Of a stretch of DNA of 16,811 bases, positions 1 to 16,811 are shown in pieces (positions within the stretch are counted from its first letter, which is position 1; each line of letters opens with the position of its first letter). Source of the DNA: a virus (lineage: Duplodnaviria > Heunggongvirae > Uroviricota > Caudoviricetes); IMG/VR virus record IMGVR_UViG_2579778842_000004; one strand, written 5' to 3'. Under the pieces are notes generated by a model, which made no database searches, had not been told where the DNA came from, and was given only the letters and a program-made list of their open reading frames with translations. The translations under genes and the position numbers were made by a program.

Positions 1-332
1 AAGATATATTGCTGATTTGAAAAGTTTTTCCCTGTTTTCAGCATGTCTTTCGGCATTATGGTTGCTATTTTTTATTTCAGGTATTAGTTCCTGTTCTACC
101 GCCATTTCGTATCGTTTTTTGCTCTTAGCTGCGTCAAAACTTCCATTAACCTTTGCGTCGTGAAGATATTCTAAATCAGCCTTTGTTATATAAATGTTTT
201 TATCTGACAGGCTACTCAGGTGAATCTGGGAACTTTGCATTTTGAATTTATATAGATCACAATCAAATGTTGCTTCAAGTCGCACATATGGCTCTCCACA
301 TTCTTGTGAATGATAATGTCGTGTTGTACTAC
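1..332. repeat. Terminal direct repeat, left copy (matches 16480-16811)
   Basis: Direct comparison: 1-332 equals 16480-16811 except one substitution (T at 49 vs C at 16528), which is synonymous in the minus-strand ORF. Identity runs to both window edges, so the true repeat may be longer. Confidence 0.95.
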
Positions 333-801
333 CGCGTACACGCAACAATCCGCATGCAATTGATTTTCTTACAATAAAAGAGTTTTTGCCAATTTGTTCA
401 AAAACATTTTTATTGTCTCTGTCTTCAACTGTCAGTGGTTTATGTGCATAAAATAGCTCATAAGCACCGCTTTCAGATGCTGGGATATAAACTTCGTTGC
501 TTGCGCTGGTAATAAGAAAAGGAAATGTAAACCTTACTTCTTCTGGGTACATAAGTAATAAATCAGTTATAAAATCAGCATCTTTTTTGAAGTGGATGGC
601 GGCATCAGCTTCAATGAAATCAAGAAAGTCAGCATAGACATAAAAGTCTATATGTAGTCTATCTTTCCAATGCCATATATCATCAATTTCACAATTTAAT
701 AATTTTGATGCTCGCTCTATCGTGCAGTAGTCCAAAGGTGGAATACCTGATTCCTGCCATAAATTTCTATGCACCGCAGTTGTTTCATGAGAGTCGTTCA
801 T
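1..801 (-). CDS. Hypothetical protein, AT-rich ('gene X'), 5' part; 3' end runs off the window start. Same gene as the 16315-16811 copy if the unit is circular or tandem (about 321 aa).
   Basis: ATG at 801-799 with AAGGTG 6 nt upstream; in-frame TAG further upstream excludes an earlier start. Open frame continues to position 1 (MNDSHETTAVHRNLWQESGIPPLDYCTIERASKLL...). Not in the ORF track because it is truncated. Visibly AT-rich compared with neighbours. Confidence 0.55.
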   Translation of the reverse strand, partial: MNDSHETTAVHRNLWQESGIPPLDYCTIERASKLLNCEIDDIWHWKDRLHIDFYVYADFLDFIEADAAIHFKKDADFITDLLLMYPEEVRFTFPFLITSASNEVYIPASESGAYELFYAHKPLTVEDRDNKNVFEQIGKNSFIVRKSIACGLLRVRGSTTRHYHSQECGEPYVRLEATFDCDLYKFKMQSSQIHLSSLSDKNIYITKADLEYLHDAKVNGSFDAAKSKKRYEMAVEQELIPEIKNSNHNAERHAENREKLFKSAIYL

Positions 802-896
802 TGCGTCACCTTTTACGCTGCGCCTTATTTTGTGATTGAGCCAGGCGGTAAGGCTTCCCGCTTTTCGCCCCGTCGAGCTAGGCTCAATCTATTCAG

Positions 897-2156
897 TTAG
901 TTCGCCCTTCTGAGAGGCGTTACGTTGTAGTCTTTTCCGCTTTCCAGTGCCACCAGCAGATCAGCCCACTGTGCCAGTGCTGCTTTACGCTCATCAAAAT
1001 ACTGATGGCGGTTATAAATCCCCTCTACGCCCTTAATGCGATGATTGAGGCATCGTTCCGCCACAACAGGATCAACACCCAACGCTGCTAAATGAGTACG
1101 TGCGGTGCGTCGGAAGTCGTGAATCGTGAAATTAGGCACATCCGGCATTTCGGCGCGAACCTTAGCCAGTGCTACGGGTAAAGTGCTTTCCTGAATATGT
1201 GGGATCATTCTGTTTTGCATCTTCCTGGCCGGAAGCACCCATGCGCTATTACATGAAAAGGTGTGTAGCTCTCTCAACCATTCAACGGCTGGGGAAGGTA
1301 GAGGTATATCAATAGGGTCTCCGTTTTTGCTGCGTTCTTCCGGCAAATGCCATACCGCACCATCTAAATCAAACTCTTCCCATCGTGCGGCGCATAACTC
1401 CATCTTACGAACGCATAGTGCCAGCAATAGCTTAAATGTCAGTTCGTTCTGGCGGCTGAATCCTTTTGCGGTGCGCATAGCCTCGAATAGCCTGATAAGC
1501 TCATCGCGAGTTAGCCAACGGTCGCGGGAAACCTCTTTACCACCAGCATCAGATACTTCAAACGCTGAACAAGGGTTTATCTCCAGAGCGTGGCGTTTTA
1601 TCCCATAGTCAAAGATACGGCGTGTCCAGCGTAATACATCTGTTGCTATCGTTGGTGCTCCTCGGTCAACGATACCTTTCAACATGTCGTCAATGTGGCG
1701 TGGCTTAACGTCCTCTACCTTCATATGCCCAATGCAGGGGTTAATATCCTTATCAATTCTCCGGCGAAGGATATCGGGATGTTTCCATCTCGGAAGTATC
1801 TGGCGCTCGAAGTATTCGGAGGCCAGATCTGAAACACGCATGGCGTTTTTCTCAGCCTCCATTTTTGCCAGTGCTTCAGCTTTTCGTTCCTGTTTCTCTG
1901 CTGCTACGTCATAGCCAAGAGCAACTCTGGCTGACAGCTCTTTTGCTGTTTCTCTGGCTTTTGATAGTGACAGTTCGGAGTAAGAGCCTATAACCATAGC
2001 CCGCTGCTTTCCTGCGAGCTTATAGCGGAATCGCCAGAACGGGACTGTGTAGTTTTTGGGGTAGCAAATATAAAGGCCGTTGCCGTCTGCCTTGCCATCA
2101 AATCTGTCTCCCGCCTTTATCCATGCGCGGATCTGCATATCTGTGAGTTTTGGCAT
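897..2156 (-). CDS. int: Tyrosine recombinase / integrase, P4-type (N-terminal arm-binding domain plus catalytic domain)
   Basis: N-terminus MPKLTDMQIRAWIKAG...DGNGLYICYPKNYTVPFWRFRYKLAGKQRAMVIGSY is typical of P4-family integrases. C-terminal catalytic motifs HDFRRTARTHLAALG and LNHRIKGVEGIYNRHQY (R...HxxR...Y). Start placed at the internal ATG (2156) rather than the track start 2240, because 2157-2240 is occupied by TGTACA repeats. Confidence 0.88.
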   Translation of the reverse strand: MPKLTDMQIRAWIKAGDRFDGKADGNGLYICYPKNYTVPFWRFRYKLAGKQRAMVIGSYSELSLSKARETAKELSARVALGYDVAAEKQERKAEALAKMEAEKNAMRVSDLASEYFERQILPRWKHPDILRRRIDKDINPCIGHMKVEDVKPRHIDDMLKGIVDRGAPTIATDVLRWTRRIFDYGIKRHALEINPCSAFEVSDAGGKEVSRDRWLTRDELIRLFEAMRTAKGFSRQNELTFKLLLALCVRKMELCAARWEEFDLDGAVWHLPEERSKNGDPIDIPLPSPAVEWLRELHTFSCNSAWVLPARKMQNRMIPHIQESTLPVALAKVRAEMPDVPNFTIHDFRRTARTHLAALGVDPVVAERCLNHRIKGVEGIYNRHQYFDERKAALAQWADLLVALESGKDYNVTPLRRAN

Positions 2157-2185
2157 TGCGAATACCTGAATATCGAATATGGGTG

Positions 2186-2236
2186 TGTACATAAAGCAAT
2201 GTACATGAAAGTCATTATGTACACCTCTATGTACAC
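2186..2236. promoter_or_regulatory. Array of four (A)TGTACA(C/T) repeats just upstream of int
   Basis: tgtacat 2186, atgtacat 2199, atgtacac 2216, atgtacac 2229, spaced 13-17 bp. TGTACA is self-complementary. Candidate operator or arm-type sites. Confidence 0.4.
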
Positions 2237-2281
2237 GCATATTGTGCGCTTTGTTGCGTCGTTATGATAGCTCATGATAAC

Positions 2282-2318
2282 AAAAAAGCCCGACATTTCG
2301 CGGGCTTTGTGTTTTTTT
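2282..2318. terminator. Bidirectional rho-independent terminator-like hairpin
   Basis: A-run 2282-2287, stem aagcccg (2286-2292) / cgggctt (2301-2307), loop 8 nt, then TTTGTGTTTTTTT. T-run available on both strands. Confidence 0.5.
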
Positions 2319-2427
2319 GCTGCTTGGTGATTTTTACTGATGGCTTATTCGATATTCTGAATCTGTTTGTAGAGTATTGGCTTCAATGCCGCATTGTAGC
2401 TGGTTTCTTCCTAATGCGATTTTTGAT

Positions 2428-2447
2428 TATGTACACCCTTATGTACA
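2428..2447. promoter_or_regulatory. Second pair of ATGTACAC repeats (ttatgtacacccttatgtacacgg)
   Basis: Near-identical to the 2215-2238 pair, about 210 bp away on the other side of the terminator. Confidence 0.3.
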
Positions 2448-2740
2448 CGGTTTTTTCGGGTGCTTTGGTCAGAAGCCATTGCCTACATCCCTCACGATCG
2501 AGGTGTGTAACCATGTTCAGGCTTGTTGTCCTGCGCGCGCGTATTGCTCGTGAAATTGCTGTACCCAATAGTGATGTCCGAAAAAACCTCCGTTCTCACA
2601 TGAAACAGCCATATGCAACTGGTAACTGAACAGACTGGTAGACCGTTCGTTCAGTAAATACCTGATATTTTCGCCAACGAGAAATTGCGTTGGCTGGCAG
2701 GGTGCAAATTTGCACGATGGACTAACCCATTGATTCTTTC

Positions 2741-2765
2741 GAAAACCCCCATTGGGGGAAAAGCC
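2741..2765 (-). terminator. Weak terminator-like hairpin downstream of the PerC-like gene
   Basis: On the minus strand CCCCC-AAU-GGGGG followed by UUUUC; lies about 115 nt past the stop at 2875. Adjacent perfect palindrome gtgcaaatttgcac at 2702-2715. Confidence 0.3.
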
Positions 2766-2874
2766 TAACTCATTGGTTTTCCCACAATCCTCAATTTGAG
2801 GAATGTACCTAAAACCATTTTTATAGCTCCGATCCCTTCAAAGTGAGGGGTAATTTGCCAAAACAGAGAGAGCA

Positions 2875-3162
2875 TTACTGTCTCTGGCAATCTTTATCGC
2901 GATAACGCCTGAAGTACCCTCTCGCTTCCTCATCCATACCAAGAGCCGAATGAGTCCGCTTAACTGCCTGTCTTAAATCTCCGAATCTGTCTGTAGTTGC
3001 TGGTGGGCGTGCCGCCTTACGGATACATTCAGAGCGTCTGTTTGCTGCATGTTCACGTTCTTTATCGCCATCTGCCAGCATCATGACTTCTGCCCATCGT
3101 GCGGCAGCTCTCCGGTATAGCCCTTTTGACTCCAGCTCTTCAGCTTTCCTGTCCCTTATCAT
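2875..3162 (-). CDS. Small basic regulator, PerC/ANR-family-like (tentative)
   Basis: 95 aa, MIRDRKAEELESKGLYRRAAARWAEVMM... matches my recollection of the N-terminal pattern of PerC-type small activators; GAGAGG 6 nt upstream of ATG. Family assignment is from memory, not a search. Confidence 0.55.
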   Translation of the reverse strand: MIRDRKAEELESKGLYRRAAARWAEVMMLADGDKEREHAANRRSECIRKAARPPATTDRFGDLRQAVKRTHSALGMDEEARGYFRRYRDKDCQRQ

Positions 3163-3198
3163 TTCTGCCTCTCAGATTATATAGATAAGCAAAAAGGT

Positions 3199-3319
3199 GT
3201 TGGTTCAGTTGGTTCAGTTGGTTCAATTTGTAAAGATCGTTGTTTTTATTGTGTTTTTTCTGAAATATTGAACCAACATCAACTCATTTTGAACCAACAC
3301 AGCCCAGCTCTGAACCAAC
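3199..3319. repeat. Iteron cluster A: 3 tandem GTTGGTTCA (3199-3225) plus 3 inverted TGAACCAAC at 3269, 3290, 3311 (21-bp phasing)
   Basis: Read directly. The whole block is an imperfect reverse complement of cluster B (9351-9461), including the shared spacer atttgtaaaga. Confidence 0.65.
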
Positions 3320-3373
3320 AACACAGCGATAGCTTTGTGATTGGCCCGTTATTTTCTGGCTGATATTTGAGCG

Positions 3374-3404: not shown

Positions 3405-3421
3405 GGATATTACTCACTGAT

Positions 3422-4699: not shown

Positions 4700-5314
4700 G
4701 TGAGCAGAAAAGATACTAAAGAATTGCTAACTATCTGCATGGTGTACTTTTCAATTTATTTTTGTGCATACATGATAGTCCCAGATGAGTTTGAACATGG
4801 CAGTATTATTTATTCCATAACATTCTATTTTTTAGAGCTAACACCAATTTTGGCTATCCTTTTGGCAATACATATTTATTTTTCCTTAAAAAAAGAATCG
4901 ACTAATTGGGAGAAGGTATGGAGAGACAGAGGATTTCTAACATCACCTAAAGATGATGCATATGAGAGTGATTTTTCAGACTTTATAACAAACTACTACT
5001 CCAGCGAACGATTCAAAAATAGACTGTCTGATGTTTGGGAAACAGCAATGTATTCTATAGGGATTATATTATTGATACTTACTGGTATTGCTCAATATGT
5101 TTTTAACATTGACTTATCATTAAATCCTGAAAATTTAATATCGCCATTGATTTTTGGTGAGATATTGATCTTCTCATTCGGAATTTTCTTGAGTGTTGTT
5201 CTCTGCTCATTATGCAAGCTACTGACTAACAGGTATCCGGGTGAAGCAAGGAGAGCAAGAAAGGCAAATCCATATTATCTTTTATTTCCTAATGGAGACA
5301 GCAGAGATATCTAA
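4700..5314 (+). CDS. AT-rich integral membrane protein, about 4 TM helices, unknown function
   Basis: GTG at 4700 preceded by AAAGGGAGGG (5-nt spacer). Composition drops sharply in GC at about 4690. Four hydrophobic segments (LLTICMVYFSIYFCAYMIV, IIYSITFYFLELTPILAILLAIHIYF, AMYSIGIILLILTGIAQYVF, LISPLIFGEILIFSFGIFLSVVLCSLC). The track's longer start (4463) would include repeat-rich DNA. Confidence 0.6.
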   Translation: MSRKDTKELLTICMVYFSIYFCAYMIVPDEFEHGSIIYSITFYFLELTPILAILLAIHIYFSLKKESTNWEKVWRDRGFLTSPKDDAYESDFSDFITNYYSSERFKNRLSDVWETAMYSIGIILLILTGIAQYVFNIDLSLNPENLISPLIFGEILIFSFGIFLSVVLCSLCKLLTNRYPGEARRARKANPYYLLFPNGDSRDI

Positions 5315-5332
5315 GCCATCCATGGCCATCTG

Positions 5333-7348
5333 TTATTGAGCTTCCTTTTGCGATGCTTGTGCTGCTGTGGTCAGTGATTGTGTGACCGTACTGATCGCTC
5401 TGTCATATGCTGTGCTACCTTTTGGCGTATTTGCCAGACGTAACAAGGCATTTCGTATAACAGGGCTTTCGTATGCCTTCGCTGCTCCGCCTACGGCACC
5501 AGCAGCAGGAACAACAAACGCAGCCGTTTTTAGCATCCCCGCTAATACTGCTGCGTTTATGATGCCACCACCAACTAACAATCCATAAAGCTGCTGACCA
5601 TTTAAGTTTTGAACGTTCGCTTTTGCCGCGTGTCTTGTATCGTTGAGGTATTTAATAACGCCGTCCAGTTCCTTTCCATGTACGCCTTTAAAGAAAGTTG
5701 CTGATTGCTTCCTGTTCCGGTGTAACGCATTAATAAACTTCTCAACACTGATATTTCCAGACGGATCAGTCGCCTTATCTACAGCATTCTGAACTATGGC
5801 TGCTCGTGCGTTTTGCCTACCATTGTCATCCAGAAGCCTGTAAAGCTGAGAACGTTCTGATGGGCTTTGGCTAAAAACGAGTTTTGTTACATCCTCAGGC
5901 GTGGCCTTGCCGCTGGCTATTGCCTTTTGAACGCGCGTTCTTCCCATCATGTCATTGAATTTAGACCATGAGCGATCAACCCTTGCCATATTAATGGCTT
6001 CGTCTGCTCCAAGATTTTTGGCTACGGCTTTTTTCATATCCGCCGTATATGCCTTGTAGATAATATCGCTGGCTTTCTGGAGCGTATCTTTATCAACAGT
6101 GTCAGATGACGCCATAAATCGCTTTCGAAGATCGGTTCTGTTTTCCCTCGCCAGACGCAGGTCATTTGGTCCGCTGGTGATATCGTCTTTAAATTGCTGC
6201 AAGACTTTTACCGCGGCTCTATCCTGAGATTTGCCCGGGCGGCTTAACACGGCAATCTGATTGTCGATAGCTTTTACCGTGTTTGAGAGATCGACAGGGG
6301 TATCCCCCATAGCGTCAATTATGCGGTTATATCGCTTTCCTGCTGCCTCAATGAATTTTTGTTGCCCTTTAGTCGCAGATTCATAAAGCTGTTTATCAGA
6401 AATGCCACCCAGACCATCGCTAAATGTTCTGACTAAATTTTCTCGTGCTTGTTGTTGATTCAGCCGATTCTTACCGGTTCCAAAAAAAGGAACTCTTTCG
6501 CCTAATGTCTGAGCCTGACTCTGCATAAAGGTTTTATCTTTCAGCATGTCACTGGTCATTAACGGTAGGTTTCTTTCCGATGCAAAATCAACAGCGGCTT
6601 TCGCTTCCGGTGCCATATCACCGCGAACGGCCCTCGAAACGGCACTCACTGTATTCTCCAGACCCTTACCAATGCCGCCAATGCCAGCAGAGATTACCGT
6701 TTGTAACGGATCAATATCTTCTCCACCAGCAAGGCTGGTGGCTCCCTGTAGTGCTAAATCTGTAGCTGCTGATTTCCCTATGGCCCCCAGCACCGTTCCG
6801 GCCCTGCCCGCTGGTGTAAACGCCAGCGCATTAGCCAGAAACGATGCCACGTCTTGCGGCGATAAACCCGGCTTGTTCAGAGCATAATCACCGGATGGTA
6901 GGGAAACGATAGTGTTACCCTTCTCATCCTGCCTTAATTTCGCTCCCATGCTCTGAAGAATCTTTTCCTGAGATGCGTCAGAGCCGAAAAGTTGAGACCA
7001 TCGAGCTTTTAGAGCATCCATGCTGAGTGAGGTTAACTCTGGGGCAAGGTCGACATTTTGCAGTCTCTCCATCTCTGGAGTCATTCGGCTTTCGCCTGTT
7101 ATAGCATCGCGCATCGCAGCCCCAAGGCTGGCTCCCTGTTCTGCTGAACGCTCAAGCCCCTCTCTTTGCTGAGTAGCTAACTTTGCATACCCTGACGCAA
7201 GAGAGTTGTCTGCTGGCGATTGCTGAACACCTTGTTGTGTTGGTGCTGACTGACCAGCAAAATACTCATCAATGGCGGTGCCAATATCTTCGGTGCTCGT
7301 ACCATCAGGGAAGGTAAATGTCTTACCGTTTGCAGTTACTTTCATCAT
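5333..7348 (-). CDS. Large (671 aa) Ala/Gln/Gly-rich, largely helical-looking protein with C-terminal hydrophobic segment; function unknown
   Basis: Start overlaps the upstream stop (ATGA at 7348-7345). C-terminal [40 protein letters not shown] is membrane-like. No enzymatic motif recognised. Confidence 0.8.
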
Positions 7349-8736
7349 TCCACCGTAAATTGAATGCCTGATTTTGACGTGTAGCTACCTCCTGCTGATT
7401 GCTGAGTAGCTGGCTGTTGCCTTGATGATTTCTTCCCGCCATTACCGACATTAACGTTATATTGCTGGTTGTAATTGTCGGTATATTGCTGAATGTCGCG
7501 CATTGATTGTTGTAGTGCTTCAGGGCTTGAGAAATCAGGCTTTGGCATACCTTGAAAATACCTATTGGCCTCTGCTTCGGTGTTGATGCCAGATGCCCCC
7601 ATATCTCGGGCTGCCGCAATCCCCTGATTTTGCATTTTGCCCAGGATTCGCTGTGCAGCGTTGTATAGCCTCCTCTCCTCAGCACCAGATGCCCGGCTAC
7701 GAATATCTGCACCAAGAGCAAAAGAACCTGAAGAACCAGTAATACCTGTCATGAAGCCAATATCGTCAATTGATGCGCCAGAAATTGCCTCAAGATCTTT
7801 CTTCATTTCGTAATTCTGCGCATTAGCTGCCGACGTGGCCGGAGCAGCAATAGAGCCAGCTGGAACGCGAACTATGTTCCCCTCATTGTCTATACCTTCG
7901 TAGAACGCGTTAGCACCAGCACCATGAAGTTTCCCGCCTACGGTTACAGTTCTTCCGTCTGCTAGTTGAACTGTGCGCTCATTATTCCCAACCGCCCCTT
8001 TCATTGATGTTCTCTGCATCGCTAAATCCTGACCGCGCATCGTGATGTTCTGTCCTCGTGCTGTTAGCGCCTCGCCAGCCTGATTGCTGCGGATTGTCTC
8101 TGCCAACTTGTCACGCTCAATATCCCGACCTTCCATTTGATCTTTGATATCGAAGTACTTCTCATGGCCGAGAGAAAACAGTGCCAGATTACCTGCGAAG
8201 TGCTGGAAGCCCTGCGGGTCATTAACCTGCATTTCAGCAATAGTTTCTGGAGGGATACCTAAACGACGCATCTCCTTTTCGTTATCCATCATGAACCTGC
8301 CAAATGCGCCCGGACCAAGCGACGAAGCTACCTGTGCTTTAAGCGCCAGATTGCCAAAATCATCCCGCTGGGCGTCATCGACATACCCCATGCCTTTACG
8401 GACTTCCTCAAACTCTTCTGGGAATGCTGTAATAAGATTACGCATCTTCTCCCTGTCGCCGGACGCATAAGCATCTGCATAACCTTTCTGGAATGCCGCT
8501 TTACGCTCCTGCTGTTGCTGCTGCTTATAAATATCAGCAACTCCAGCCAGACCACGAAGACCTGTCAGAGCAACGTTATTTGCACCTGATCGAGCCAGTT
8601 CATTGTTTTCGCGGATCAGACCAAGCGTTGCGTTAATGTCGCTTGCCTTTGGCGCATTCTCATTTTGCGTACCGATGCCAGCCAGAAAACCACCAGAATT
8701 AATACCCTGTTGCCACGTAGCCATTGATTTACCCAC
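7345..8736 (-). CDS. Large (about 460 aa) low-complexity Gly/Ala/Gln/Asn-rich protein; function unknown
   Basis: Long ORF, translationally coupled to the 671-aa gene. Track start is GTG 8736; ATG at 8724 ([12 protein letters not shown]...) is an alternative. Confidence 0.78.
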
Positions 8737-8902
8737 GTCCAGTTAAAGTGTAAGTCAGCGCCTTATCCATTAATCCCCGAGCAATTTCGTGGATCGTTGG
8801 CGCAACTCCTACCTCTGATTTTTTACGCTGCTCCTCCTGAATTTTCTTTATCGCTTCCATTTGTTTCTCACTTATCAATACTGGCTTTACTGAAATAGCC
8901 AT
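8729..8902 (-). CDS. Possible small Lys/Glu-rich ORF (57 aa) heading the large-protein operon
   Basis: ATG at 8902 with AAGGGGG 4 nt upstream (cagttctAAGGGGGcgttATG); stop at 8729-8731, 4 nt before ATG 8724. Not in the ORF track, presumably because it is short. Confidence 0.3.
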
Positions 8903-9030: not shown

Positions 9031-9350
9031 CGTTCTGTATGTCAGGTTTTGACAGGTTTTTTATGGACTCTAAAAACTATATTTATGGTGTCGCATTACT
9101 CTTCACGGCAGGCGCTTTCCAGTTCTGCCCTTGCTTCTGGCTCCATTGGTAATTTGATTCGAAATCAGCTATGCGGATGGTTTGCTGAACAGGCATAACA
9201 ACTTCTCAGAGGCTGTTTTTTTGAACTACGAAAATTTCGTAGTGCTCACTTTCAAAAACGTCACGCCCTTGTACACAGGATTTTACGAAAGTCTCGTAAA
9301 GCACTCTCTGATGCCAGCCAGATGTTGTGCTCATCAATTCAGTCACGTTG

Positions 9351-9461
9351 TGTTGGTTCAAAATGCCGTGTTGTTGGTTCAGTGTTGGTTCAATAAAAAG
9401 AATAAAATCCTTATAAAACAATACTCTTTACAAATTGAACCAACTGAACCAACTGAACCAA
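9351..9461. repeat. Iteron cluster B: 3 GTTGGTTCA (9351, 9372, 9383) plus 3 tandem TGAACCAAC (9435-9461)
   Basis: Read directly; mirror image of cluster A, immediately downstream of the primase stop (9488). Confidence 0.65.
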
Positions 9462-9487
9462 CACCTTTTCTACGCACATGAAGAAGC

Positions 9488-12250
9488 TCATTCTTCAGAT
9501 GAGTTATAATCTCCTGGCTGGTAATTGAGTACATAAACGTTTATTTGTCGTCCCTGAATACGTGGTGATTTTCTTTGGTATCCACGACCGCTGTTTGGTG
9601 GGGTTAGCATCCCGGCTTTTTTCAACACTTCAGCAAACTGTTTTGCGTTGAAACCACATGCGATCTCCTTTTCAAATGTGGCCGGGAATGTGTAGAAAAT
9701 CATTGGGCTTTCGTCATGTTCTCCACGCTGACGGTATCCGGCTAAATCTTTGATGGGCAAATCTGCCGGGCTGTATGGAAATGGTGCAAAACGGCTAAGC
9801 CCATAGGCATTAAGAAATGCCTCCGTTTGTTCAATAATCTGCTGATGCTCTTTGTTACCTGTGCCGAACTCGCGCAACCATGCGTTATAGCTGTGCTGTA
9901 TCGCATCACGGCATGTCTGAGCATCCCAGCCTGTTACAACCTCGCCTAACAACAATGCGGCCTCCAGAATGGCAAATCGCGCGGCTACACGGTGAACCTG
10001 CTCACCATAATCGGATGGGATCAGGCTTCTCCATCTGCTTTCGCAATCACGAACAGTTTTAATAGCCTGTTGCTGGTGGTCTGCCAGCCATTTAATCCAC
10101 TCACGCCCGGCTGCGCCATGGTGATGCTGGTAAGCGTCTTTCAGTGCGTCTGCGTGCTGTTTTCCGTTCTGGTAATCGTGAAAGCGTACTGCTTTACTCA
10201 ACGGAATATTCAGCAGTCGCACCAGTTGCCCGGCTTTGGTTTTTCGCCCGGAAGTAGCGATAAATGTTTCTAAATCCATTTCTCCGGTGCTGATTGCCAC
10301 TGTGCGCCAGCGTTTTAGATCCCGGTTTCCACCATCTTTAGCGCCTTGCAGTTTCCCTACACCGTTAAATAACGCATAGGCAGACTGTGAAACACTGACA
10401 GGATCAGCGCCCTGACCAACTTCATCAAGCGGCATTAGTCCGTCATTGTGGGCGGCAGCTTCATTTGCCAGCCCCAGCGCGGTTCCGTACCACGTCAGCC
10501 GCAGTAAATCAGGGTTGCCGTATAAGCTGCTCGCCACGTTTGCCGTGGTGGTCTTACCTGCGCTCGACTGCTCATAGAAATGAATGCCGAACCCGTCAGC
10601 GCCCACCAGCCCAATCAATGGCGCTGCCAGTGCTGCGCCGATCCCGGTCATCATTGAATAGTTACCAAAGGCCAGACGCGCCACGTTATCACGCCAGCTT
10701 TTCGCGCTCCCTGAGACGGTATATCCGGCTGCGGCTGAGCTTCTCCCGCTGAACAGCACAGGATTTTCAGGTGTTCCGATGATTTCCCCATCAGGCATGA
10801 TGTACGCTCCGCATTGCCAGCCAGTGGCATGAGCAACACGCCACAATTCACGAGAGCCACTGCGTTGTAGCCAGTCTGCCAGTATTGCTCTGAGGCTGCT
10901 TTTGGTCGTGACATTTACCCCACCAGCTTTCAGGGTGCGCCAGCCTTCACGCTCGCCAATATCAGCCAGCGGGATAGCCGCTGTTGTCGGTATGCCTGCA
11001 CCGAATGCCAGCCATGAGATAATAAGATACTGATCTTTGTCGTCGCGTCCCGTGCCGATAACCTCCAACGGGGAACATAACCAGCTTTCAGCGTTGACGA
11101 TCTCCCCGCTTTCCTTGTCCACCTTCGGCGTTACCCAGAAAACGCCATCTTTGCGGCTCTCAATGTGGGGTTTTAGTGGATCTTTCTCTGGATGGTCAGT
11201 TTTACCGCCCTCAATGGCTTGCAATCGCGGTTTCACGGCTTCCCCTTGAATCTGGTACATCGAATCGTTAAACGCAGCCGTAGCGACTTCCAGCCCGTTT
11301 TGCTGGCGGTAGTCGTCCCAGTCGGCTTTGTAGTCTGTCGGCGGCAGTGCCACCCAGCCAGCCACGGATAAGGCGGCTTTCTCTGCGGCATCTTTGCCCG
11401 TGTTCGCCTGTTCGTCCTGCTGGTGGTCGTTATCTGCGGCAATGATAATCTGCGTGGCTGGATATATCCGGCGCATCACTTCGGCAACGGGTAGCAGGTT
11501 GCCCGCATCAATGGCGCACACTGTCAGCGCGTCAGGGCGCATCAGGTGGACTGATAAAGCGGTTGCCAGCCCCTCGGCAATTAAAACGCTCTGCGGCGAT
11601 TCTGGCGCGTTTACGGCGTGATATGCCCCGCGCTTTGCTGAACCTGTCAGGAGTCGCTTCTCTCCCTGCGGTGTAATGGTTTGCGCTGCTGCCACTGCGC
11701 CGGATTCGTCCACCAGCTCCAGCAATAACGAACCATCCGGCATAACCGGATAGTTAAACCCGGTCAGCCCTTTTGATTGCAGGTAATCAGATTCGCCCTG
11801 TGTGGCACTCTGGCGCATTCCGGCATACAGATGGGCAAACGTAGCCCTTCGCTGCTCTGCGTCCTCTGCTGCCTGTTTCTGGCGCTCCTGCTCACGCTGC
11901 TGGCGGTCAGCTTCCAGTTGCTCCCTTCTATGGCTCGCTGCCACCGGGTCGGATTGCGCTGCCCGGTAATCAATACCCAGAACATCAGCGACAAGAAGCG
12001 CCGCCTCTGTTGTGTCGCAGTTATTTACGCGTTTAATTAAATCCAGCCCATCACCAGCGCCGCACTGATTACAGATGAAGCTACCGCGCCCGTTGTCATC
12101 GAACCGGAATCGATCTTTGCCCCCACATGCAGGGCAGGGAGCATGACGGCGCGGAGAGTCAGGGACATTTATGTTCAGGCAGCCCAGCACATGAGGCCAG
12201 TTGTTTTCAGACGCACTGATAACCTGACGGATAAGATCAATGTTTCGCAT
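9488..12250 (-). CDS. Primase-helicase, P4 alpha-like (N-terminal zinc ribbon, TOPRIM, C-terminal P-loop NTPase)
   Basis: 920 aa. Zinc ribbon CPACGG...FICNQCG; TOPRIM-like VLIAEGLATALS ... IIIAADNDHQ; Walker-A-like FYEQSSAGKTTTANV. GGGGG 5 nt upstream of ATG. Confidence 0.9.
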   Translation of the reverse strand: MRNIDLIRQVISASENNWPHVLGCLNINVPDSPRRHAPCPACGGKDRFRFDDNGRGSFICNQCGAGDGLDLIKRVNNCDTTEAALLVADVLGIDYRAAQSDPVAASHRREQLEADRQQREQERQKQAAEDAEQRRATFAHLYAGMRQSATQGESDYLQSKGLTGFNYPVMPDGSLLLELVDESGAVAAAQTITPQGEKRLLTGSAKRGAYHAVNAPESPQSVLIAEGLATALSVHLMRPDALTVCAIDAGNLLPVAEVMRRIYPATQIIIAADNDHQQDEQANTGKDAAEKAALSVAGWVALPPTDYKADWDDYRQQNGLEVATAAFNDSMYQIQGEAVKPRLQAIEGGKTDHPEKDPLKPHIESRKDGVFWVTPKVDKESGEIVNAESWLCSPLEVIGTGRDDKDQYLIISWLAFGAGIPTTAAIPLADIGEREGWRTLKAGGVNVTTKSSLRAILADWLQRSGSRELWRVAHATGWQCGAYIMPDGEIIGTPENPVLFSGRSSAAAGYTVSGSAKSWRDNVARLAFGNYSMMTGIGAALAAPLIGLVGADGFGIHFYEQSSAGKTTTANVASSLYGNPDLLRLTWYGTALGLANEAAAHNDGLMPLDEVGQGADPVSVSQSAYALFNGVGKLQGAKDGGNRDLKRWRTVAISTGEMDLETFIATSGRKTKAGQLVRLLNIPLSKAVRFHDYQNGKQHADALKDAYQHHHGAAGREWIKWLADHQQQAIKTVRDCESRWRSLIPSDYGEQVHRVAARFAILEAALLLGEVVTGWDAQTCRDAIQHSYNAWLREFGTGNKEHQQIIEQTEAFLNAYGLSRFAPFPYSPADLPIKDLAGYRQRGEHDESPMIFYTFPATFEKEIACGFNAKQFAEVLKKAGMLTPPNSGRGYQRKSPRIQGRQINVYVLNYQPGDYNSSEE

Positions 12251-12262
12251 TCTGGCCCCCGT

Positions 12263-13339: not shown

Positions 13340-13530
13340 TTTTCACCCCCAAGAATTACCAGCTCTGCACGGGCATCGTTAACCAAAGATGAGCACGCTT
13401 TAATCGCATCCACGACATCAGTAGCGTCCATTTCTTCAGCCGAAAGACTGACAGCAACCAGGACAGCCGCTGCTTGCTCGATTAATTGAAGTGCGGACGT
13501 AAGGCGAGGGGTATTAATTGAGTTATTCAT
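13336..13530 (-). CDS. Small acidic hypothetical protein (64 aa)
   Basis: ATGA-type overlap with neighbours. Confidence 0.5.
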   Translation of the reverse strand: MNNSINTPRLTSALQLIEQAAAVLVAVSLSAEEMDATDVVDAIKACSSLVNDARAELVILGGEK

Positions 13531-13741
13531 TGGTTTCCCCCGTTTTTACTGGCATTTCGCCACCTTCCAGCAGGAAATGAACGTCACGAACGGCGAGATC
13601 CAATATCGCGAGTAACGCCTTCAGTCTTTCGTCTCGTGAGGGAGAGTTGCTCACCAGAATGTCGTTAATCACTTCTGTCAGTGTGATGATCTGGCTTGTG
13701 CGTTCGAGGGGATCCATATGCACATCGTAGGTTTTAATCAT
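13523..13741 (-). CDS. Small acidic hypothetical protein (72 aa)
   Basis: ATG 13741 with GGAGGTG 6 nt upstream; overlaps the stop of the 13734-13928 ORF (CATGATTAA). In frame with the long 13523-14551 open frame. Confidence 0.5.
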   Translation of the reverse strand: MIKTYDVHMDPLERTSQIITLTEVINDILVSNSPSRDERLKALLAILDLAVRDVHFLLEGGEMPVKTGETNE

Positions 13742-14551
13742 GTGCCACCTCCATGCGGATACGACCAGCAAAAAAGCAGACGTGATCGCGCACCAGAGAA
13801 CGGCGAGCATCGCGTTCAGACTCGGCAGCAATATGATGAATTTTGGCGGTAATTGTCGGGCAATCGCGGCGAACTGCGGCGATAATCCAGATAAATTGCG
13901 GTTTTTGGGTAGGGGTAGTAGCCAGCATGTGGCAGCCTCCTTGATTGATGGTTTATAGCCACCGCCGGAGGTCCTAAGCTCGCTGGCGGTGGACTGTACA
14001 GGGTTAGGACTACTGGCAATCAAGGAAACCAGCCTGACCGAAGTCAGCCCCATACAGCCCACCATTGATAAGGTGTGCGTGTGCGCCGATACAAAAAAAG
14101 ACGCTGGCGCGTCATGTATCGCCTCGATTGCCTGCGGGGTCCTAATCCCGGCACCCGTTTTATGAGGTGCCTTATAACCATAAACCGTGTTGCCGCATAA
14201 CGGCAAGCTCTTTTTTATGGACTCCGAAAACTCACTATTGGAAGCACCAGATGCACAATACATCGCGCTCATTTCGTTAACGTCACGCACGTGGACGAAT
14301 GTTTTTGTGGAGTCACTACACGAGCAGAACAGGTGATCTACGACCAGAAATTCTCTGGCGCAGCCGCTGACCTTCTCAACGCTAACACCATCGACCGTAA
14401 TTTCTGACATAGTTAAGGCATCCGCTCCTACCACCAGCAAATGATAAACTTTGCTTGTATCTGCTGTATTAATGCCTGACTTTGCTGTCATATTGCTGGA
14501 TTTTGGCGACATACCAGCCAGTGAAAATGTCTTCTTCTGGACGGTTAGCAT
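13523..14551 (-). CDS. Long uninterrupted open frame (342 codons); N-terminal about 150 codons look coding, middle section coincides with RNA structures; possibly composite or frameshifted
   Basis: ATG 14551 has GGAGG 7 nt upstream and overlaps the upstream stop (ATGCTAA). No in-frame stop until 13523; a T7 run sits at 14099-14093. Alternative annotation is the two small ORFs listed separately. Confidence 0.3.
13734..13928 (-). CDS. Small basic hypothetical protein (64 aa)
   Basis: ATG 13928 preceded by textbook SD AAGGAGG (13942-13936, 7-nt spacer). The SD lies in the 3' arm of a predicted RNA stem. Confidence 0.45.
   Translation of the reverse strand: MLATTPTQKPQFIWIIAAVRRDCPTITAKIHHIAAESERDARRSLVRDHVCFFAGRIRMEVAHD
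13936..14113 (-). promoter_or_regulatory. Structured RNA leader/attenuator-like region (minus-strand transcript)
   Basis: 5' to 3' on the minus strand: hairpin GACGC-GCCA-GCGUC then U7 (14113-14093); CUGAC-UUCG-GUCAG tetraloop hairpin (14047-14034); 9-bp long-range stem CCUUGAUUG (14025-14017) pairing CAAUCAAGG (13947-13939), which contains the SD of the 13928 ORF and encloses an 8-bp hairpin CCACCGCC/GGCGGUGG (13992-13959). Confidence 0.4.
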
Positions 14552-14727
14552 TTGTTAACCTCCGCGAACTCCTTCATGAAACGCGCCAGCGGTTGTACGC
14601 ATGGCGATTGATACCCGTCGCGATAGAACGTCACTCGGTTGTGAGACACGCTTTCGACAGTAACGAGTGCTCCGTGGGCATCTTTGTAGCGTTTTTGAGG
14701 TTGTGGTGTTCCTGTAGGCTTAAACAT
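14545..14727 (-). CDS. Small hypothetical protein (60 aa)
   Basis: ATG 14727 with GGAGG 6 nt upstream, 4 nt after the AntA-like stop (MFKPTGTPQPQKRYKDAHGALVTVESV...). The track start 14814 would overlap the upstream gene. Confidence 0.5.
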   Translation of the reverse strand: MFKPTGTPQPQKRYKDAHGALVTVESVSHNRVTFYRDGYQSPCVQPLARFMKEFAEVNKC

Positions 14728-15553
14728 GGACCGCCTCCAGACGCTTAGCGAGCCAGCGTTGCGACAGGCGGGTGAGTTCTCCTTTGCGCTGCTCATATTC
14801 CATGCCCATATCAATTAACGTGATATTGGTGCTTTCGAGATATGAGAGGTGCTCAAGTTGTTCTGCGTTCATATGGTCGCGAGGTTCGCCAGAATAGCCA
14901 TTTATCCGCGCCCACTGCTTAGCAGTTAGCCCACCAAGAACGATACGAGAAATCATATTGCTCTCGTTTGTGTAGTGGTGTTGCTGCGTCGTTTTCCCCT
15001 GCTCGGCACGGGCCATATTCAGCGCATCGCACATTGGCTTAAAGTTGTTTGCGGCACTGATACGGGCTTTTAGCTGGCGACGATAGCGGGCGGCGATTTC
15101 AGGAACGCTACGCTGTAATTCTTCCTCGCACTGGATGAAATAACGGCGGATAGCGCGCCCCTGATCATTGCGTTCGATCATTGCCAGTTCTTTCGCCATT
15201 CCGACACTTAACAGATAGTCTTTGCCGGGTCTGCCAGAGTGCTTAATCTTGCTGTAAGCCGTGCCATTCGGGCTTTTCCCCAAATTTGGGGAAATTGTTT
15301 TATGGACTGAGTAATCGTGCCCAATGGTGAAGTCATATTCAGAGATGCGATCAGTGATCCATGTAGAGAAGTCTTTTCCCACGCCCAACGCTTTGTGTAA
15401 CGCTTTTGCGCTAACAATATTGGTTTCACGCCCACCGATATGACCAGGAATAACCGGGACAATTGCGGCAAATTCATTACCGTTAATTGTGCCCAGAGAG
15501 GCGTTCAGATGAGGGGCGGCCTCAGAAATTAATCTGCTTTTTTCGATGTTCAT
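14720..15553 (-). CDS. Phage antirepressor-like protein (AntA-type N-terminal domain)
   Basis: 277 aa; N-terminal segment ...NIVSAKALHKALGVGKDFSTWITDRISEYDFTIGHDY... matches the AntA/Bro-type signature as I recall it; GGAGA 7 nt upstream. Confidence 0.7.
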   Translation of the reverse strand: MNIEKSRLISEAAPHLNASLGTINGNEFAAIVPVIPGHIGGRETNIVSAKALHKALGVGKDFSTWITDRISEYDFTIGHDYSVHKTISPNLGKSPNGTAYSKIKHSGRPGKDYLLSVGMAKELAMIERNDQGRAIRRYFIQCEEELQRSVPEIAARYRRQLKARISAANNFKPMCDALNMARAEQGKTTQQHHYTNESNMISRIVLGGLTAKQWARINGYSGEPRDHMNAEQLEHLSYLESTNITLIDMGMEYEQRKGELTRLSQRWLAKRLEAVHV

Positions 15554-15565
15554 TTTCAGTCTCCG

Positions 15566-15997
15566 TTAGGCGGCGTTAAACGCGTTCGGGTAGAGTTTCA
15601 GAATGTCGGCAATTTCCTGCTGAGAAAGTCCGTTGTGATCATTTATGTTCGCAAGATGGTTAACATGAGTGATCACTTTCAGAACATCACCACGGCAGGA
15701 GAAACGGTAGCGAAGGTGTGTTCCGATACCATCAGGATTCTTTTCGTCGATACGCTCCAGAGTGATTCCAAGCTGGCGTTCTAACTCTGTTGCATAGTTA
15801 CGACCAGAAGACAGACGGCAGTAGCGAAGAATGTCATTTTCTGTCCATCCCTCTATACCAGTACGCAGCATATAGACTCTGGCACGATGCTTTTTCGGTG
15901 TGCGCTTTGGTTCTTGAAGGGATTTTGTAAGGGGCGTAACATCAGATACGCGAATATCTGAATTAGCCGCCTGTAATGGGCGGTTTTTCTTTTCCAT
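15566..15997 (-). CDS. Hypothetical protein (143 aa), translationally coupled to the AlpA-like gene
   Basis: ATG overlaps the AlpA-like stop (TGATG); AAGGTGG 5 nt upstream. Confidence 0.6.
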   Translation of the reverse strand: MEKKNRPLQAANSDIRVSDVTPLTKSLQEPKRTPKKHRARVYMLRTGIEGWTENDILRYCRLSSGRNYATELERQLGITLERIDEKNPDGIGTHLRYRFSCRGDVLKVITHVNHLANINDHNGLSQQEIADILKLYPNAFNAA

Positions 15998-16200
15998 CAG
16001 GCCACCTTCCCGCGGCGTTCTGCCAGCCAGTTGTGAATCTCAACCGCATCAAACGCAGTTATTTTTTCTCCCAGCTTTACCGGACGTGGTAGTGAACCGT
16101 TTCTTACTTTACGGTCGATGGTGGATACACTAACGCCCAGCAATTCAGCCAGGCGGAAGCGTCTGATATAGCCTTTTGTAGGAATAGTGTCGGTGTTCAT
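15997..16200 (-). CDS. alpA: AlpA-family / excisionase-type helix-turn-helix regulator
   Basis: 67 aa; RFRLAELLGVSVSTIDRKVRNGSLPRPVKLGEKITAFDAVEIHNWL fits the AlpA/Xis HTH pattern; first gene of the long minus-strand operon. Confidence 0.75.
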   Translation of the reverse strand: MNTDTIPTKGYIRRFRLAELLGVSVSTIDRKVRNGSLPRPVKLGEKITAFDAVEIHNWLAERRGKVA

Positions 16201-16204
16201 GCTT

Positions 16205-16259
16205 CCCGTAACCTCTTAGCGATAGTTGTTGCTTCGTTACGGGAGGAAGTATCTGTACA
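16205..16259 (-). promoter_or_regulatory. Leader of the AlpA-like gene: 8-bp inverted repeat around the SD plus one TGTACA motif
   Basis: CCCGTAAC (16205-16212) and GTTACGGG (16236-16243) separated by 23 nt; AAGAGG lies at the loop/stem junction; tgtaca at 16254-16259. Confidence 0.35.
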
Positions 16260-16270
16260 TATATGAACAA

Positions 16271-16298
16271 TAAAAAGGCACAGTAATGATACTGTGCC
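16271..16298 (-). terminator. Rho-independent terminator downstream of gene X
   Basis: Minus strand: stem GGCACAGU / ACUGUGCC (16298-16291 / 16284-16277), 6-nt loop, then U5 (complement of A-run 16272-16276); 17 nt after the stop at 16315. Confidence 0.55.
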
Positions 16299-16314
16299 TG
16301 AATAGTTAGCTACT

Positions 16315-16811
16315 CTACCCCTTACCGTTGGCGGCAGCACGTAAGTGTCTCAAAATCACATCTTCATTTGTGATTGCTAACGGTGGAATTTCGTCTTTAT
16401 GAGCCACTATGCAATCCCGCCACTTCTCAGGGCTTATTTCTTTCTTTTTGCCACGGCATTCATCAGGATACTTTGACAAAAGATATATTGCTGATTTGAA
16501 AAGTTTTTCCCTGTTTTCAGCATGTCTCTCGGCATTATGGTTGCTATTTTTTATTTCAGGTATTAGTTCCTGTTCTACCGCCATTTCGTATCGTTTTTTG
16601 CTCTTAGCTGCGTCAAAACTTCCATTAACCTTTGCGTCGTGAAGATATTCTAAATCAGCCTTTGTTATATAAATGTTTTTATCTGACAGGCTACTCAGGT
16701 GAATCTGGGAACTTTGCATTTTGAATTTATATAGATCACAATCAAATGTTGCTTCAAGTCGCACATATGGCTCTCCACATTCTTGTGAATGATAATGTCG
16801 TGTTGTACTAC
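16315..16811 (-). CDS. Hypothetical AT-rich protein ('gene X'), 3' part; 5' end runs off the window end
   Basis: Frame is open from the window end to the stop at 16315. The last 54 codons (LSKYPDECRGKKKEISPEKWRDCIVAHKDEIPPLAITNEDVILRHLRAAANGKG) are unique; the rest duplicates 1-332 in the same frame. Confidence 0.6.
   Translation of the reverse strand, partial: STTRHYHSQECGEPYVRLEATFDCDLYKFKMQSSQIHLSSLSDKNIYITKADLEYLHDAKVNGSFDAAKSKKRYEMAVEQELIPEIKNSNHNAERHAENREKLFKSAIYLLSKYPDECRGKKKEISPEKWRDCIVAHKDEIPPLAITNEDVILRHLRAAANGKG
16480..16811. repeat. Terminal direct repeat, right copy (matches 1-332)
   Basis: See left copy; offset between copies is 16479 bp. Confidence 0.95.

Follow-up and report, generated by a model that had tools for sequence, protein, structure and literature searches.

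The viral record IMGVR_UViG_2579778842_000004, a stretch of 16,811 nucleotides that was analyzed at its full length (hereafter, the window), carries a genomic island that is probably a satellite of P22-like phages of the same type as EcCIMP1, a 20-kb island integrated at tRNA-Thr in the commensal Escherichia coli MP1 (Pick, Stadel & Raivio, ISME J 2025, PMC11773190). Considered separately, the assignment of the element to the EcCIMP1-type satellites with a residence at the yicC gene is very likely, and a P22-like helper is quite likely. The window element is an additional EcCIMP1-like phage-inducible chromosomal island (PICI), with a different integration site and a reduced cassette of ejection-protein genes. 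A common E. coli island is hereby placed in an experimentally validated satellite lineage, and the P4-type genes that it lacks would be the mark of a different, P22-like headful-packaging helper, not of decay. An earlier note, made from the sequence alone, had described a P4-like replicon without recognizable capsid-redirection genes and had suggested that it may represent a distinct family; such a family does exist, in the form of the EcCIMP1-like PICIs described in 2025 (PMC11773190).

The kinship with EcCIMP1 is already apparent at the DNA level, positions 12265-16007 of the window being 94% identical to the MP1 locus over 3.7 kb, with several small proteins that are 97-100% identical. The shared backbone (88-100% identity at the protein level and 94% at the DNA level) comprises the genes of a 143-amino-acid (aa) protein (p143), AntA and a DUF4222 protein, the isrK/C4 RNAs, icd, small open reading frames (ORFs) and a Toprim-DUF927 primase. 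Both elements further have p57 (85-90% identical) followed by P22-type ejection genes, a PerC-family gene, two types of units resembling packaging (pac) sites, type 1 and type 2, and two iteron clusters. The differences lie elsewhere: the integrases and the AlpA proteins are only 28% and 33% identical, respectively; a 321-aa protein of the window has no match in EcCIMP1; EcCIMP1 integrates at tRNA-Thr with the core TCCTATTATC, whereas the window element uses a 21-bp core at the 3′ end of yicC; the P22-type block is 14-7-20-16 in EcCIMP1 but reduced to gp20 and gp16 in the window element, the former being 27% identical between the two and the latter without detectable identity; and a recognizable SieA homolog is present in the window element, while a second alpA is present in EcCIMP1 and absent from the window element. 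Given this backbone identity combined with unlike int and alpA genes, the window element can be described as an EcCIMP1-like PICI whose integration module has been swapped.

With regard to lifestyle, EcCIMP1 excises and circularizes only in the presence of the P22-like phage Kapi1, with both alpA and int being required, and its alpA needed for excision stands at a position matching that of alpA in the window element (PMC11773190). It also contributes to superinfection immunity against Kapi1, and its authors reported that SatelliteFinder would only class it as a “Type C” PICI and that its packaging mechanism is unknown (PMC11773190). As its sequence shows, the window element integrates through a P4-type tyrosine integrase into the 21-bp site at the 3′ end of yicC. 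By analogy with EcCIMP1, its helper would be a headful-packaging P22-like podovirus, as Kapi1 is for EcCIMP1, and a helper-triggered, AlpA-dependent excision would be followed by replication. The resulting concatemers would be recognized by the small terminase (TerS) of the helper through look-alikes of pac, namely a terS fragment starting at the P22 pac 22-mer, type 1 (P22/Louie-like) units and type 2 (Kapi1-terS-like) units, and would fill full-size helper heads, a scheme that would need neither capsid-size redirection nor cos. The p57-gp20-gp16 operon would supply a matched pair of ejection proteins that would be built into the helper-made particles and alter DNA delivery, with, as a possible gain, the passing of SieA-type exclusion in recipients that already carry a P22-like prophage, while the convergent SieA homolog could shield the carrier cell from P22-like superinfection. 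A likely helper of this kind, a P22-like headful podovirus and not a P2-like cos phage, would explain why capsid-redirection genes and cos are both absent.

Circular form and insertion at yicC

The first 332 nucleotides of the window (1-332) are repeated at its end (16480..16811), with 99.7% identity in a self-BLAST and a single mismatch (position 49 versus 16528), so that the unit length of the island is 16,479 bp and the window holds one full turn plus 332 bp. A near-copy is found in the dinD-yicC interval of the chromosomes of porcine enterotoxigenic E. coli (ETEC), with 3-4 nucleotide differences and 99.96-99.98% identity per aligned piece; the ETEC genomes with the identical island are of pig origin. 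On the integrated copy of strain ETEC1749, the window maps as two pieces, 2345-16811 and 1-2365, which share 21 bp. Taken together, the terminal repeat and the two-piece mapping with its 21-bp overlap establish that the window is a circular permutation of the 16,479-bp island and includes the joined attP. Such a sequence could have arisen from an excised circle, from a concatemer that had been packaged or from a tandem duplication in the chromosome, since the three would yield identical letters.

The 21-bp attP core, TTATTCGATATTCTGAATCTG (2345..2365), corresponds to the last six codons plus the stop codon of the host yicC gene, and the identical attR core, TTATTCGATATTCTGAATCTG, forms these final six codons and stop in the integrated state. 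The core of the empty K-12 site, TTATTCGATGTTCTGAATCTG, is one base off the attP core, and the distribution of this G/A polymorphism, at core position 10, is the one predicted if strand exchange takes place to the right of it. The attL core of ETEC1749 (L001:8001-8019) reads TTATTCGATGTT--GAATCTG and thereby shows a 2-bp deletion relative to attB, attP and attR. As read from these junctions, the att site is the 3′ end of the protein-coding yicC, not a tRNA gene, and integration rebuilds the end of yicC. In this regard, the statement of the earlier note that no tRNA-derived att core could be recognized holds for its tRNA part, since no tRNA or tmRNA was found in the window by ARAGORN, no tRNA by Rfam, and no tRNA 3′ end adjoins int; an att core nevertheless does exist beside int, and the search against host genomes that the note had proposed identified it as yicC-derived. 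Two copies of a direct repeat (family D11, 92% identical, ATTATGTACACC(YY)TATGTACACG, plus strand), located one on each side of the core at 2214-2237 and 2426-2449, are probably, from their position, arm-type sites of the integrase.

At least 80% of the element is present at dinD-yicC in 55 E. coli genomes, out of 5,426 complete genomes, and some portion of it turns up in about 1,600. More broadly, the yicC site is held by related islands in E. coli and in other genera, and the yicC att core also borders the related islands found at yicC in other Enterobacterales. The island family moreover exists outside chromosomes: a search of PLSDB identified a smaller relative as a 12,152-bp circular “plasmid” record of E. 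coli Z1323CEC0013 (NZ_CP148430.1), which carries the attP of the island and both iteron clusters, and in which p57 is directly followed by p147, with no ejection genes. Other circular “plasmid” records of the family are CP031371.2, NZ_CP146545.1, CP031370.2 and NZ_CP033626.1, the whole set spanning 12-23 kb. These small circles, filed as plasmids, represent episomal members of the island family.

Proposed look-alikes of pac sites

Between the DUF4222 gene and the isrK-like RNA, non-coding and antisense to the genes of the island, lies a 107-bp fragment derived from a P22-type terS gene (14297..14403, plus strand), which starts at the pac 22-mer and holds the pac-like unit GAATGTTTTTGTGGAGTCACTA at 14297-14318. 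Positions 14302-14403 are 90% identical to nucleotides 9-110 of P22 (blastn), a stretch located inside gene 3 (terS), and the annotated pac site of P22 covers its nucleotides 4-25; the homology begins within about 5 nucleotides of the 5′ end of pac and ends 85 nucleotides downstream. By our estimate, if 107 bp were captured at random from a genome of 41.7 kb, pac would be part of the piece in about 0.3% of cases. The fragment is matched by 115 phage records, and the match falls at terS in all of the 40 listed rows with annotation, including those of the E. coli phages Louie, IME10 and HZ41. It is conserved in all seven Escherichia islands examined; in other genera, this long fragment is absent and the same position has single or tandem units of the consensus GAAGGTTTTTCTGACATCACTA(CGCGAG), type 1 units that reach 19/22 identities to P22 pac and 23/28 to the Louie-type sequence.

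Two additional type 1 units, each with 19/22 identities to the family consensus, are found on the minus strand of the window, at 4531-4552 (GAAGATTTTTCTGATATCACTG) and at 2569-2590. Counting the copy embedded in the terS fragment, three type 1 units with at least 17/22 identities to the consensus are present, against 0.02 expected. Type 2 units accompany them on the same strand, with ATTTCGAGACAAGTACGCGCG at 4494-4514 and ATTTTGCGACAAGTACGTGCG at 4209-4229 beside the first, and a unit at 2536-2556 that pairs with the second; a further type 2 unit lies at 16336-16356, and EcCIMP1 has three copies of this type. In the 39-kb genome of Kapi1, the only match to type 2 with at least 15/21 identities, TTTTCGCGACAAGTACGCG, is located inside terS. 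The TerS proteins of P22 and Kapi1 are not detectably homologous, and the P22 pac and the Kapi1 segment both encode an analogous “...EDL/EDF...” stretch. At the scale of 78 related loci, we counted 29 type 1 and 20 type 2 hits, versus 2 and 0, respectively, in controls with reversed sequences; the hits cluster on the coding strand, 1-3 kb upstream of the primase gene, and often form tandem arrays. A scan of IMG/VR with the 14-mer GCGACAAGTACGCG mostly returned chance hits, and confirmed the motif only in Kapi1-type terS genes and in the islands. In Leclercia adecarboxylata, at least eight type 1 and three type 2 units lie at the far end of an island with a full 14-7-20-16 block (L032:21700-22310).

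On this basis, we lean slightly towards pac mimicry, in which the islands would contain sequences imitating the pac sites of two or more TerS families. Such look-alikes would let the islands be packaged by the headful mechanism even though they have no terS, cos or capsid-size gene. A competing explanation, to which we give a minor but appreciable chance, holds that regulators of the islands (AlpA, p57, p147 or partners of AntA) use the type 1 and type 2 units as operators or activator sites, and that the likeness of the units to terS is incidental save for one fragment captured by accident. Consistent with such a role, the majority of units sit immediately upstream of GAGTCCATAAAAAAG, a promoter-proximal box that precedes isrK/C4 and has a similar counterpart before p57, and the units form tandem arrays, as operators do. 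Against it, independent unit types match two unrelated TerS families at an analogous coding position, the Escherichia copy is an antisense 107-bp piece of a coding gene with its boundary at the pac site, and arrays are also found far from promoters, as at the island end in L. adecarboxylata. If pac mimicry does operate, then the look-alikes at 14297-14403, 4209-4552 and 2536-2590 are candidate answers to the question of how such islands are packaged, which the EcCIMP1 study had left open.

Ejection proteins behind p57

The stretch behind the primase gene has a hairpin resembling a terminator, noticed on visual inspection and not among the results of a terminator scan, and then an AT-rich region; next comes the gene of the 57-aa protein p57 (8729..8902, minus strand), which heads an operon of ejection proteins and ends 4 nucleotides from the start of gp20. 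The 459-aa homolog of P22 gp20 (7345..8724, minus strand; PF16928 Inj_translocase, “DNA/protein translocase of phage P22 injectosome”, E 1e-83; phrog_917, E 3e-196) is 63% identical to its P22 counterpart over the full length. It is followed by a 670-aa homolog of P22 gp16 (5333..7345, minus strand; phrog_770 “DNA transfer protein” over residues 1-670, E 8e-167), the start of which overlaps the stop of gp20 and which is 70% identical to gp16 of the E. coli P22-like phages N7 and HZ41, and 30% to that of P22 itself. Convergent with gp16, a 204-aa SieA-like inner-membrane protein (4700..5314, plus strand; phrog_7745, E 5e-4) aligns with P22 SieA at 30% identity over 108 aa (E 2e-8), the C-terminal RYPGEA motif included. 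The order and orientation of gp20, gp16 and the convergent sieA are those of the end of the late operon of P22 and its immI border (14-7-20-16, sieA, orf59a, mnt), where the positions of orf59a and mnt are occupied in the island by p73 (3957-4178, plus strand) and by p147 (3434-3877, plus strand), respectively. The N-terminus of p147 is Mnt/Arc-like, as judged from a weak match to that of Mnt (27% over 37 aa, E 0.001), and p147 is conserved at the far end of islands from many genera. The island differs from P22 in that genes 14 and 7 are missing and in that the block sits between two iteron clusters and is headed by the satellite-specific p57. The suggestion of the earlier note that the element carries cargo instead of, or as well as, helper-exploitation genes therefore has to be revised, as the large “cargo” ORFs are P22-type genes for the ejection proteins gp20 and gp16, plus a SieA homolog.

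Homologs of p57 lie downstream of the primase gene in 32 of the 78 related loci. The AlphaFold2 model of p57 consists of an extended N-terminus and two helices, with a mean confidence score (pLDDT) of 76; a Foldseek search with this model gave no match, and a sequence search of the PDB came back empty. That p57 is a ribbon-helix-helix regulator is a guess on our part.

In a set of six islands that share AntA proteins of at least 98% identity, the gp20 alleles are 27-93% identical and those of gp16 span everything from unrelated to 98% identity, with every ORF intact; the same mosaicism of gp20 and gp16 has been seen among P22-like phages (PMC10883804). A complete 14-7-20-16 block is found in other E. 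coli islands, namely in one same-backbone island at tRNA-Thr and in EcCIMP1, and the gene at the sieA position also varies across E. coli islands, the SieA homolog being common to the window and CS5L only. Since the 12-kb episome has p57 directly followed by p147, the ejection genes form a facultative cassette. At the yicC site of E. coli PA45B, another island (L083) has the same regulatory backbone and p57, a DUF5906 (D5-type) primase and another gp20/gp16 pair, its gp20 being the same as that of Kapi1 in the single 13-residue segment that was examined, around position 338 of P22 gp20. The modules for replication, integration and ejection are reshuffled independently of one another.

What such a cassette does can be approached from work on P22, whose virions incorporate ejection proteins of foreign origin; gp7 can be exchanged, whereas gp16 and gp20 only work when both come from one source (PMC10883804). 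SieA blocks the injection by P22-like phages, with escape mapping to the C-terminal regions of both gp16 and gp20, and the ejection proteins of HK620 confer partial resistance (PMC10883804). In view of this pairing requirement, the retention of precisely 20 and 16 by the island would fit with proteins that function in helper-built particles. We tentatively propose that gp20 and gp16 of the island are assembled into particles and aid the satellite's own delivery, a reading that we consider possible but short of probable.

The same genes could instead be host-protective cargo, with SieA blocking P22-like injection and the resident gp20 and gp16 acting as decoys or poison subunits that spoil the DNA conduit of a superinfecting or induced helper. 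We regard this as unlikely, albeit not without arguments: EcCIMP1 makes Kapi1 lysogens more immune to superinfection by this phage, a SieA homolog is encoded in the window, mismatched gp16/gp20 pairs render P22 particles non-infectious, and anti-phage genes are often found between the core modules of satellites (PMC10085698). Against it stand an undiminished burst of Kapi1 in the presence of EcCIMP1, a PADLOC search that finds nothing in the module, the lack of conservation of the sieA-position gene over E. coli islands, of which only CS5L shares the SieA homolog of the window, and the content of the slot behind p57, which in at least 26 of 30 relatives encodes tape-measure, internal-virion or hub proteins, not known defense systems. 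Still less probable, in our assessment, is a decaying chimera, that is, a P4-like cryptic island recombined with a P22-like prophage, with a useless 20-16-sieA remnant and lost mobility. Only two of the four genes of the P22 block are indeed present, attL is damaged in ETEC1749, PGAP marks gp16 of some relatives as incomplete, and some copies have insertion sequences. Yet gp20 and gp16 are both intact reading frames, coupled in translation to the conserved p57, alleles have been swapped with their frames kept in six islands with three different integration/replication modules, the window has a perfect attP, an episomal relative exists, and EcCIMP1 is functional.

A wider pattern was noticed in the 78 loci that represent this primase family across Enterobacterales. 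In at least 26 of 30 loci, the same-strand gene after p57 encodes a virion protein for envelope crossing: at least 12 have full-length tape-measure proteins, 8 have SLT-domain internal-virion or “lytic tail” proteins, 3 have tape-measure/injection-transglycosylase hybrids, 1 has a baseplate hub and 2, in addition to the E. coli islands, have the P22 14-7-20-16 block (examples from other genera are L019:14632-18042, L013:17561-20557, L024:15568-18141, L014:17927-22256 and L021:15377-16417). In Chimaeribacter, the gene of a 1,136-aa tape-measure protein lies within an island bounded by both yicC att repeats, and is therefore not part of a neighboring prophage. The slot after p57 seems to be reserved for DNA-delivery proteins of the helper type. 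In a Serratia relative, the ORF after p57 (L063:12987-13592) has a weak match to small terminases (phrog_57, E 4e-6), and some members of the family may use a TerS in place of pac mimicry.

Generalizing from these loci, it is conceivable, although we would not call it probable, that EcCIMP1-like islands form a class of satellites that combine decoy pac arrays, drawn from the terS genes of at least two TerS families, with delivery proteins of their own behind p57, and that have neither capsid remodeling nor a terminase subunit. With the same reserve, the delivery proteins would be gp20/gp16 in E. coli, and tape-measure, SLT internal-virion or hub proteins in Klebsiella, Pantoea, Erwinia, Chimaeribacter and others, and would allow satellite-specified injection, for instance past Sie-type exclusion in helper lysogens. 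If true, satellites with an injection apparatus of the helper type would represent a third strategy beside capsid redirection and capsid formation. In a limited literature search, which is no proof of novelty, we found no description of satellites that carry ejection or tape-measure proteins as a rule, nor of the helper-exploitation strategy proposed here. As tail profiles are forbidden components of PICIs in SatelliteFinder (PMC10085698), the members that bear tape-measure genes may be missed in satellite censuses.

Several observations weigh against parts of this picture. To begin with, the induction, packaging and helper identity of the window element are extrapolated from EcCIMP1, which Kapi1 transduces at very low efficiency and which leaves Kapi1 titers unreduced, with no sign of interference (PMC11773190). 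The exact attP junction has no match in IMG/VR or in a metagenome collection, and hence no independent virome support for packaging; a tandem chromosomal duplication would yield an identical window; and the 2-bp deletion in attL may impair excision in ETEC1749. As for the packaging signals, the pac-like copies of the window are diverged (15-16/22 to P22 pac and 17-19/22 to the family consensus), the Kapi1 terS segment is a candidate that may or may not be the pac site of Kapi1, and the units adjoin promoters, which leaves room for an operator role. Finally, at the SieA-escape positions 338, 341, 348 and 350, gp20 of the island has the wild-type residues of P22 and thus no direct sign of SieA resistance; the alignment of its gp16 to that of P22 is too weak to be read at such positions.

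Backbone genes and relation to P4 and other PICIs

The genes that had suggested a P4-like element are indeed present, since Pfam matches identify an integrase, an AlpA and a primase, all on the minus strand. Starting from int, the order on this strand is an RF02996 motif, the 321-aa gene, alpA, the 143-aa gene, AntA/AntB, DUF4222, isrK, C4, icd, four small genes and the primase gene. The integrase (897..2156; Arm-DNA-bind_3, Phage_int_M and Phage_integrase; tyrosine-type recombinase in RefSeq) is of the P4-int type, the AlpA-family regulator or excisionase is encoded at 15997..16200 (PF05930, E 2e-8; 35% to P4 orf88), and the primase-helicase (9488..12250; phrog_1139, E 1e-175) has Zn-ribbon, Toprim and DUF927 domains in Pfam and is 88% identical to that of EcCIMP1.

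To delimit the likeness to P4, all 14 P4 proteins (NC_001609) were compared by tblastn with the circularized element, and only four gave matches: Int with the integrase (25% identity, E 8e-19), residues 5-311 of alpha, i.e., its Zn-ribbon/Toprim part, with the primase (34%, E 1e-42), orf88/Vis with AlpA (35%, E 5e-7), and the “cI” region. The C-terminal 600 aa of the primase are DUF927 and have no match to P4 alpha, of which the helicase/DNA-binding part is lacking. The best E-values of sid, delta, psu and eps were at noise level (0.2-2.2), and Pfam and PHROGs scans of all ORFs gave no match to the Sid, Psu, Delta/Ogr and epsilon families, so that the absence of recognizable sid, psu and delta genes is confirmed and the small ORFs do not turn out to be their homologs. 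Likewise, as the earlier note had reported, no cos was found: the 19-nucleotide cos end of P4/P2 is absent at up to 3 mismatches, the P4 cos region has no blastn similarity to the window, and lambda cosN has a chance-level match only. Of the seven P4 core components of SatelliteFinder (int, alpA, alpha, epsilon, sid, delta and psu [PMC10085698]), three are present, alpha over its N-terminal part only, and the island is not a P4-like satellite in the strict sense, for want of sid, delta, psu, epsilon and cos.

The term P4-like replicon is thus justified in part only. The N-terminal primase domain of alpha, the integrase type, the Vis/AlpA-like regulator, an RNA-based CI/C4 immunity, the capacity for a circular episomal state and the layout of two separated iteron regions, one of them just downstream of the primase gene (as crr and ori are in P4), are shared; capsid-redirection and cos functions, a tRNA att and the C-terminal half of the replicase are not, and the phage-derived genes of the island come from P22-like podoviruses, not from P2-like myoviruses. 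One could argue from the P4-like int, Vis/AlpA homolog, alpha N-terminus, CI-type RNA and ori/crr-like iteron layout that the element is a true P4-type satellite of P2-like phages, whose analogs of Sid, Psu and Delta have diverged past recognition among the small ORFs. We consider this highly improbable, for sid, psu, delta and eps went unmatched in three independent searches, the P2/P4 cos is absent, all phage-derived DNA was traced to P22-like phages, and the nearest characterized relative has a P22-like helper.

Compared with PICIs, the window element has the organization described for Gram-negative members (PMC6092414), with int, alpA and primase genes co-oriented on the minus strand, and it shares this layout and PerC-family genes with the EcCICFT073-type PICIs (Fillol-Salom 2018, PMC6092414). 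For EcCICFT073, two functional cos sites, copies of the packaging signal of the helper, were demonstrated, and packaging is into full-size heads (PMC6092414). Copied packaging signals and full-size heads would be common to both, but the signals are cos in those PICIs and pac-like, with predicted headful packaging, in the window element, which furthermore has no Rpp or capsid-morphogenesis genes and has ejection genes, excluded by the definition of PICIs. Indeed, none of the components of the PICI packaging/interference module (terS, cpm, rpp and cos) was found in the window, nor were lysis, capsid, tail or terminase genes, whereas two ejection-protein genes are present; the island therefore falls outside the classical definition of PICIs, owing to the presence of virion protein genes and the absence of terS, cpm, rpp and cos. 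The capsid-forming PICIs (cf-PICIs) likewise bring part of the virion toolkit themselves, but they encode capsid, portal, connectors and terminase and steal tails, whereas the window element encodes only DNA-delivery proteins.

With regard to the remaining genes, the 321-aa protein (1..801, continuing at 16315-16479 over the permutation point, minus strand) is an annotated coding sequence in ETEC1749 and had no match in Pfam, PHROG or NCBIfam and a weak one only in PADLOC. Between it and int lies the int-alpA RNA motif RF02996 (822..888, minus strand; 60.6 bits in Rfam versus a gathering threshold of 35.8, E 1e-10), which is also found in an Enterobacter relative (L011). The 143-aa protein (15566-15997), the AntA/AntB antirepressor (14720-15553; Pfam AntA, E 2e-21) and the DUF4222 protein (14545-14727; Pfam DUF4222, E 2e-24) form a minus-strand group of three genes (14545..15997) that are 97-100% identical to their EcCIMP1 counterparts. 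The C-terminal 100 aa of AntA weakly match the PADLOC candidate defense family PDC-S22 (E 1e-10); apart from this and an Icd-like ORF, PADLOC and NCBIfam found no known defense system among the unknown ORFs.

Downstream of this group, the isrK-like RNA (14094..14170, minus strand; RF01394, 63 bits versus a gathering threshold of 50), shared with EcCIMP1 and the relatives L019 and L032, is followed by a C4/P4-CI-type antisense immunity RNA (13982..14069, minus strand; RF01695, 80 bits versus a gathering threshold of 45), the DNA of which is 70-90% identical to the P4 cI region, and by the Icd-like cell-division inhibitor ORF (13734..13928, minus strand; NCBIfam NF033153, E 4e-20). Judging from these matches, the isrK-C4 region is an antisense-RNA immunity region of the P4/P1 type, with icd next to it. 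A 342-aa ORF of the RefSeq “ash family” (13523-14551, minus strand), which overlaps isrK, C4, the Icd-like ORF and the antisense terS fragment, is probably for the most part an annotation artifact built on a P4 cI-region family. The four small genes that precede the primase gene lie at 12263-13530 on the minus strand.

Directly after the primase stop codon, iteron cluster A (9349..9469) consists of three tandem and three inverted copies of GTTGGTTCA with an AT-rich spacer, and cluster B (3192..3327) is an inverted copy of it located 6.1 kb away, the arms being 95% complementary over 55 nucleotides. The 9-mer GTTGGTTCA has 12 exact copies in the window, against 0.13 expected, all of them inside the two clusters with 6 in each; in the 12.15-kb episome NZ_CP148430.1, the clusters are 1.9 kb apart. 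The inverted repeat 3192/9469 had at one point been taken for a duplicated promoter, an interpretation that was dropped for iteron clusters once the 12 exact 9-mers were seen. According to the annotation of P4 (NC_001609), alpha requires ori plus the crr region just downstream of alpha, and by analogy clusters A and B are predicted to act like P4 ori and crr. Beside cluster B, the PerC-family regulator (2875..3162, minus strand; PF06069, E 3e-33) is 54% identical to EcCIMP1_025, which repressed LEE1 in C. rodentium (PMC11773190); the presence of such a regulator and of a SieA homolog on one island bears on virulence regulation and phage resistance.

A 22-nucleotide box, TTTTTTATGGACTCYRAAAACT (minus strand AGTTTTYRGAGTCCATAAAAAA), occurs at 14211-14232, about 40 nucleotides upstream of isrK, and at 9057-9078, upstream of p57, and is present in 34 of the scanned loci; it probably serves as a regulatory site close to promoters. 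The idea of another pac-like region in the vicinity of p57 was rejected, this box being all that 9057-9078 and 14211-14232 have in common. After the box upstream of p57, a motif noticed by eye, CCTGTCAAAACCTGACAT (around 9035-9055, minus strand), recurs between DUF4222 and isrK in several genera.

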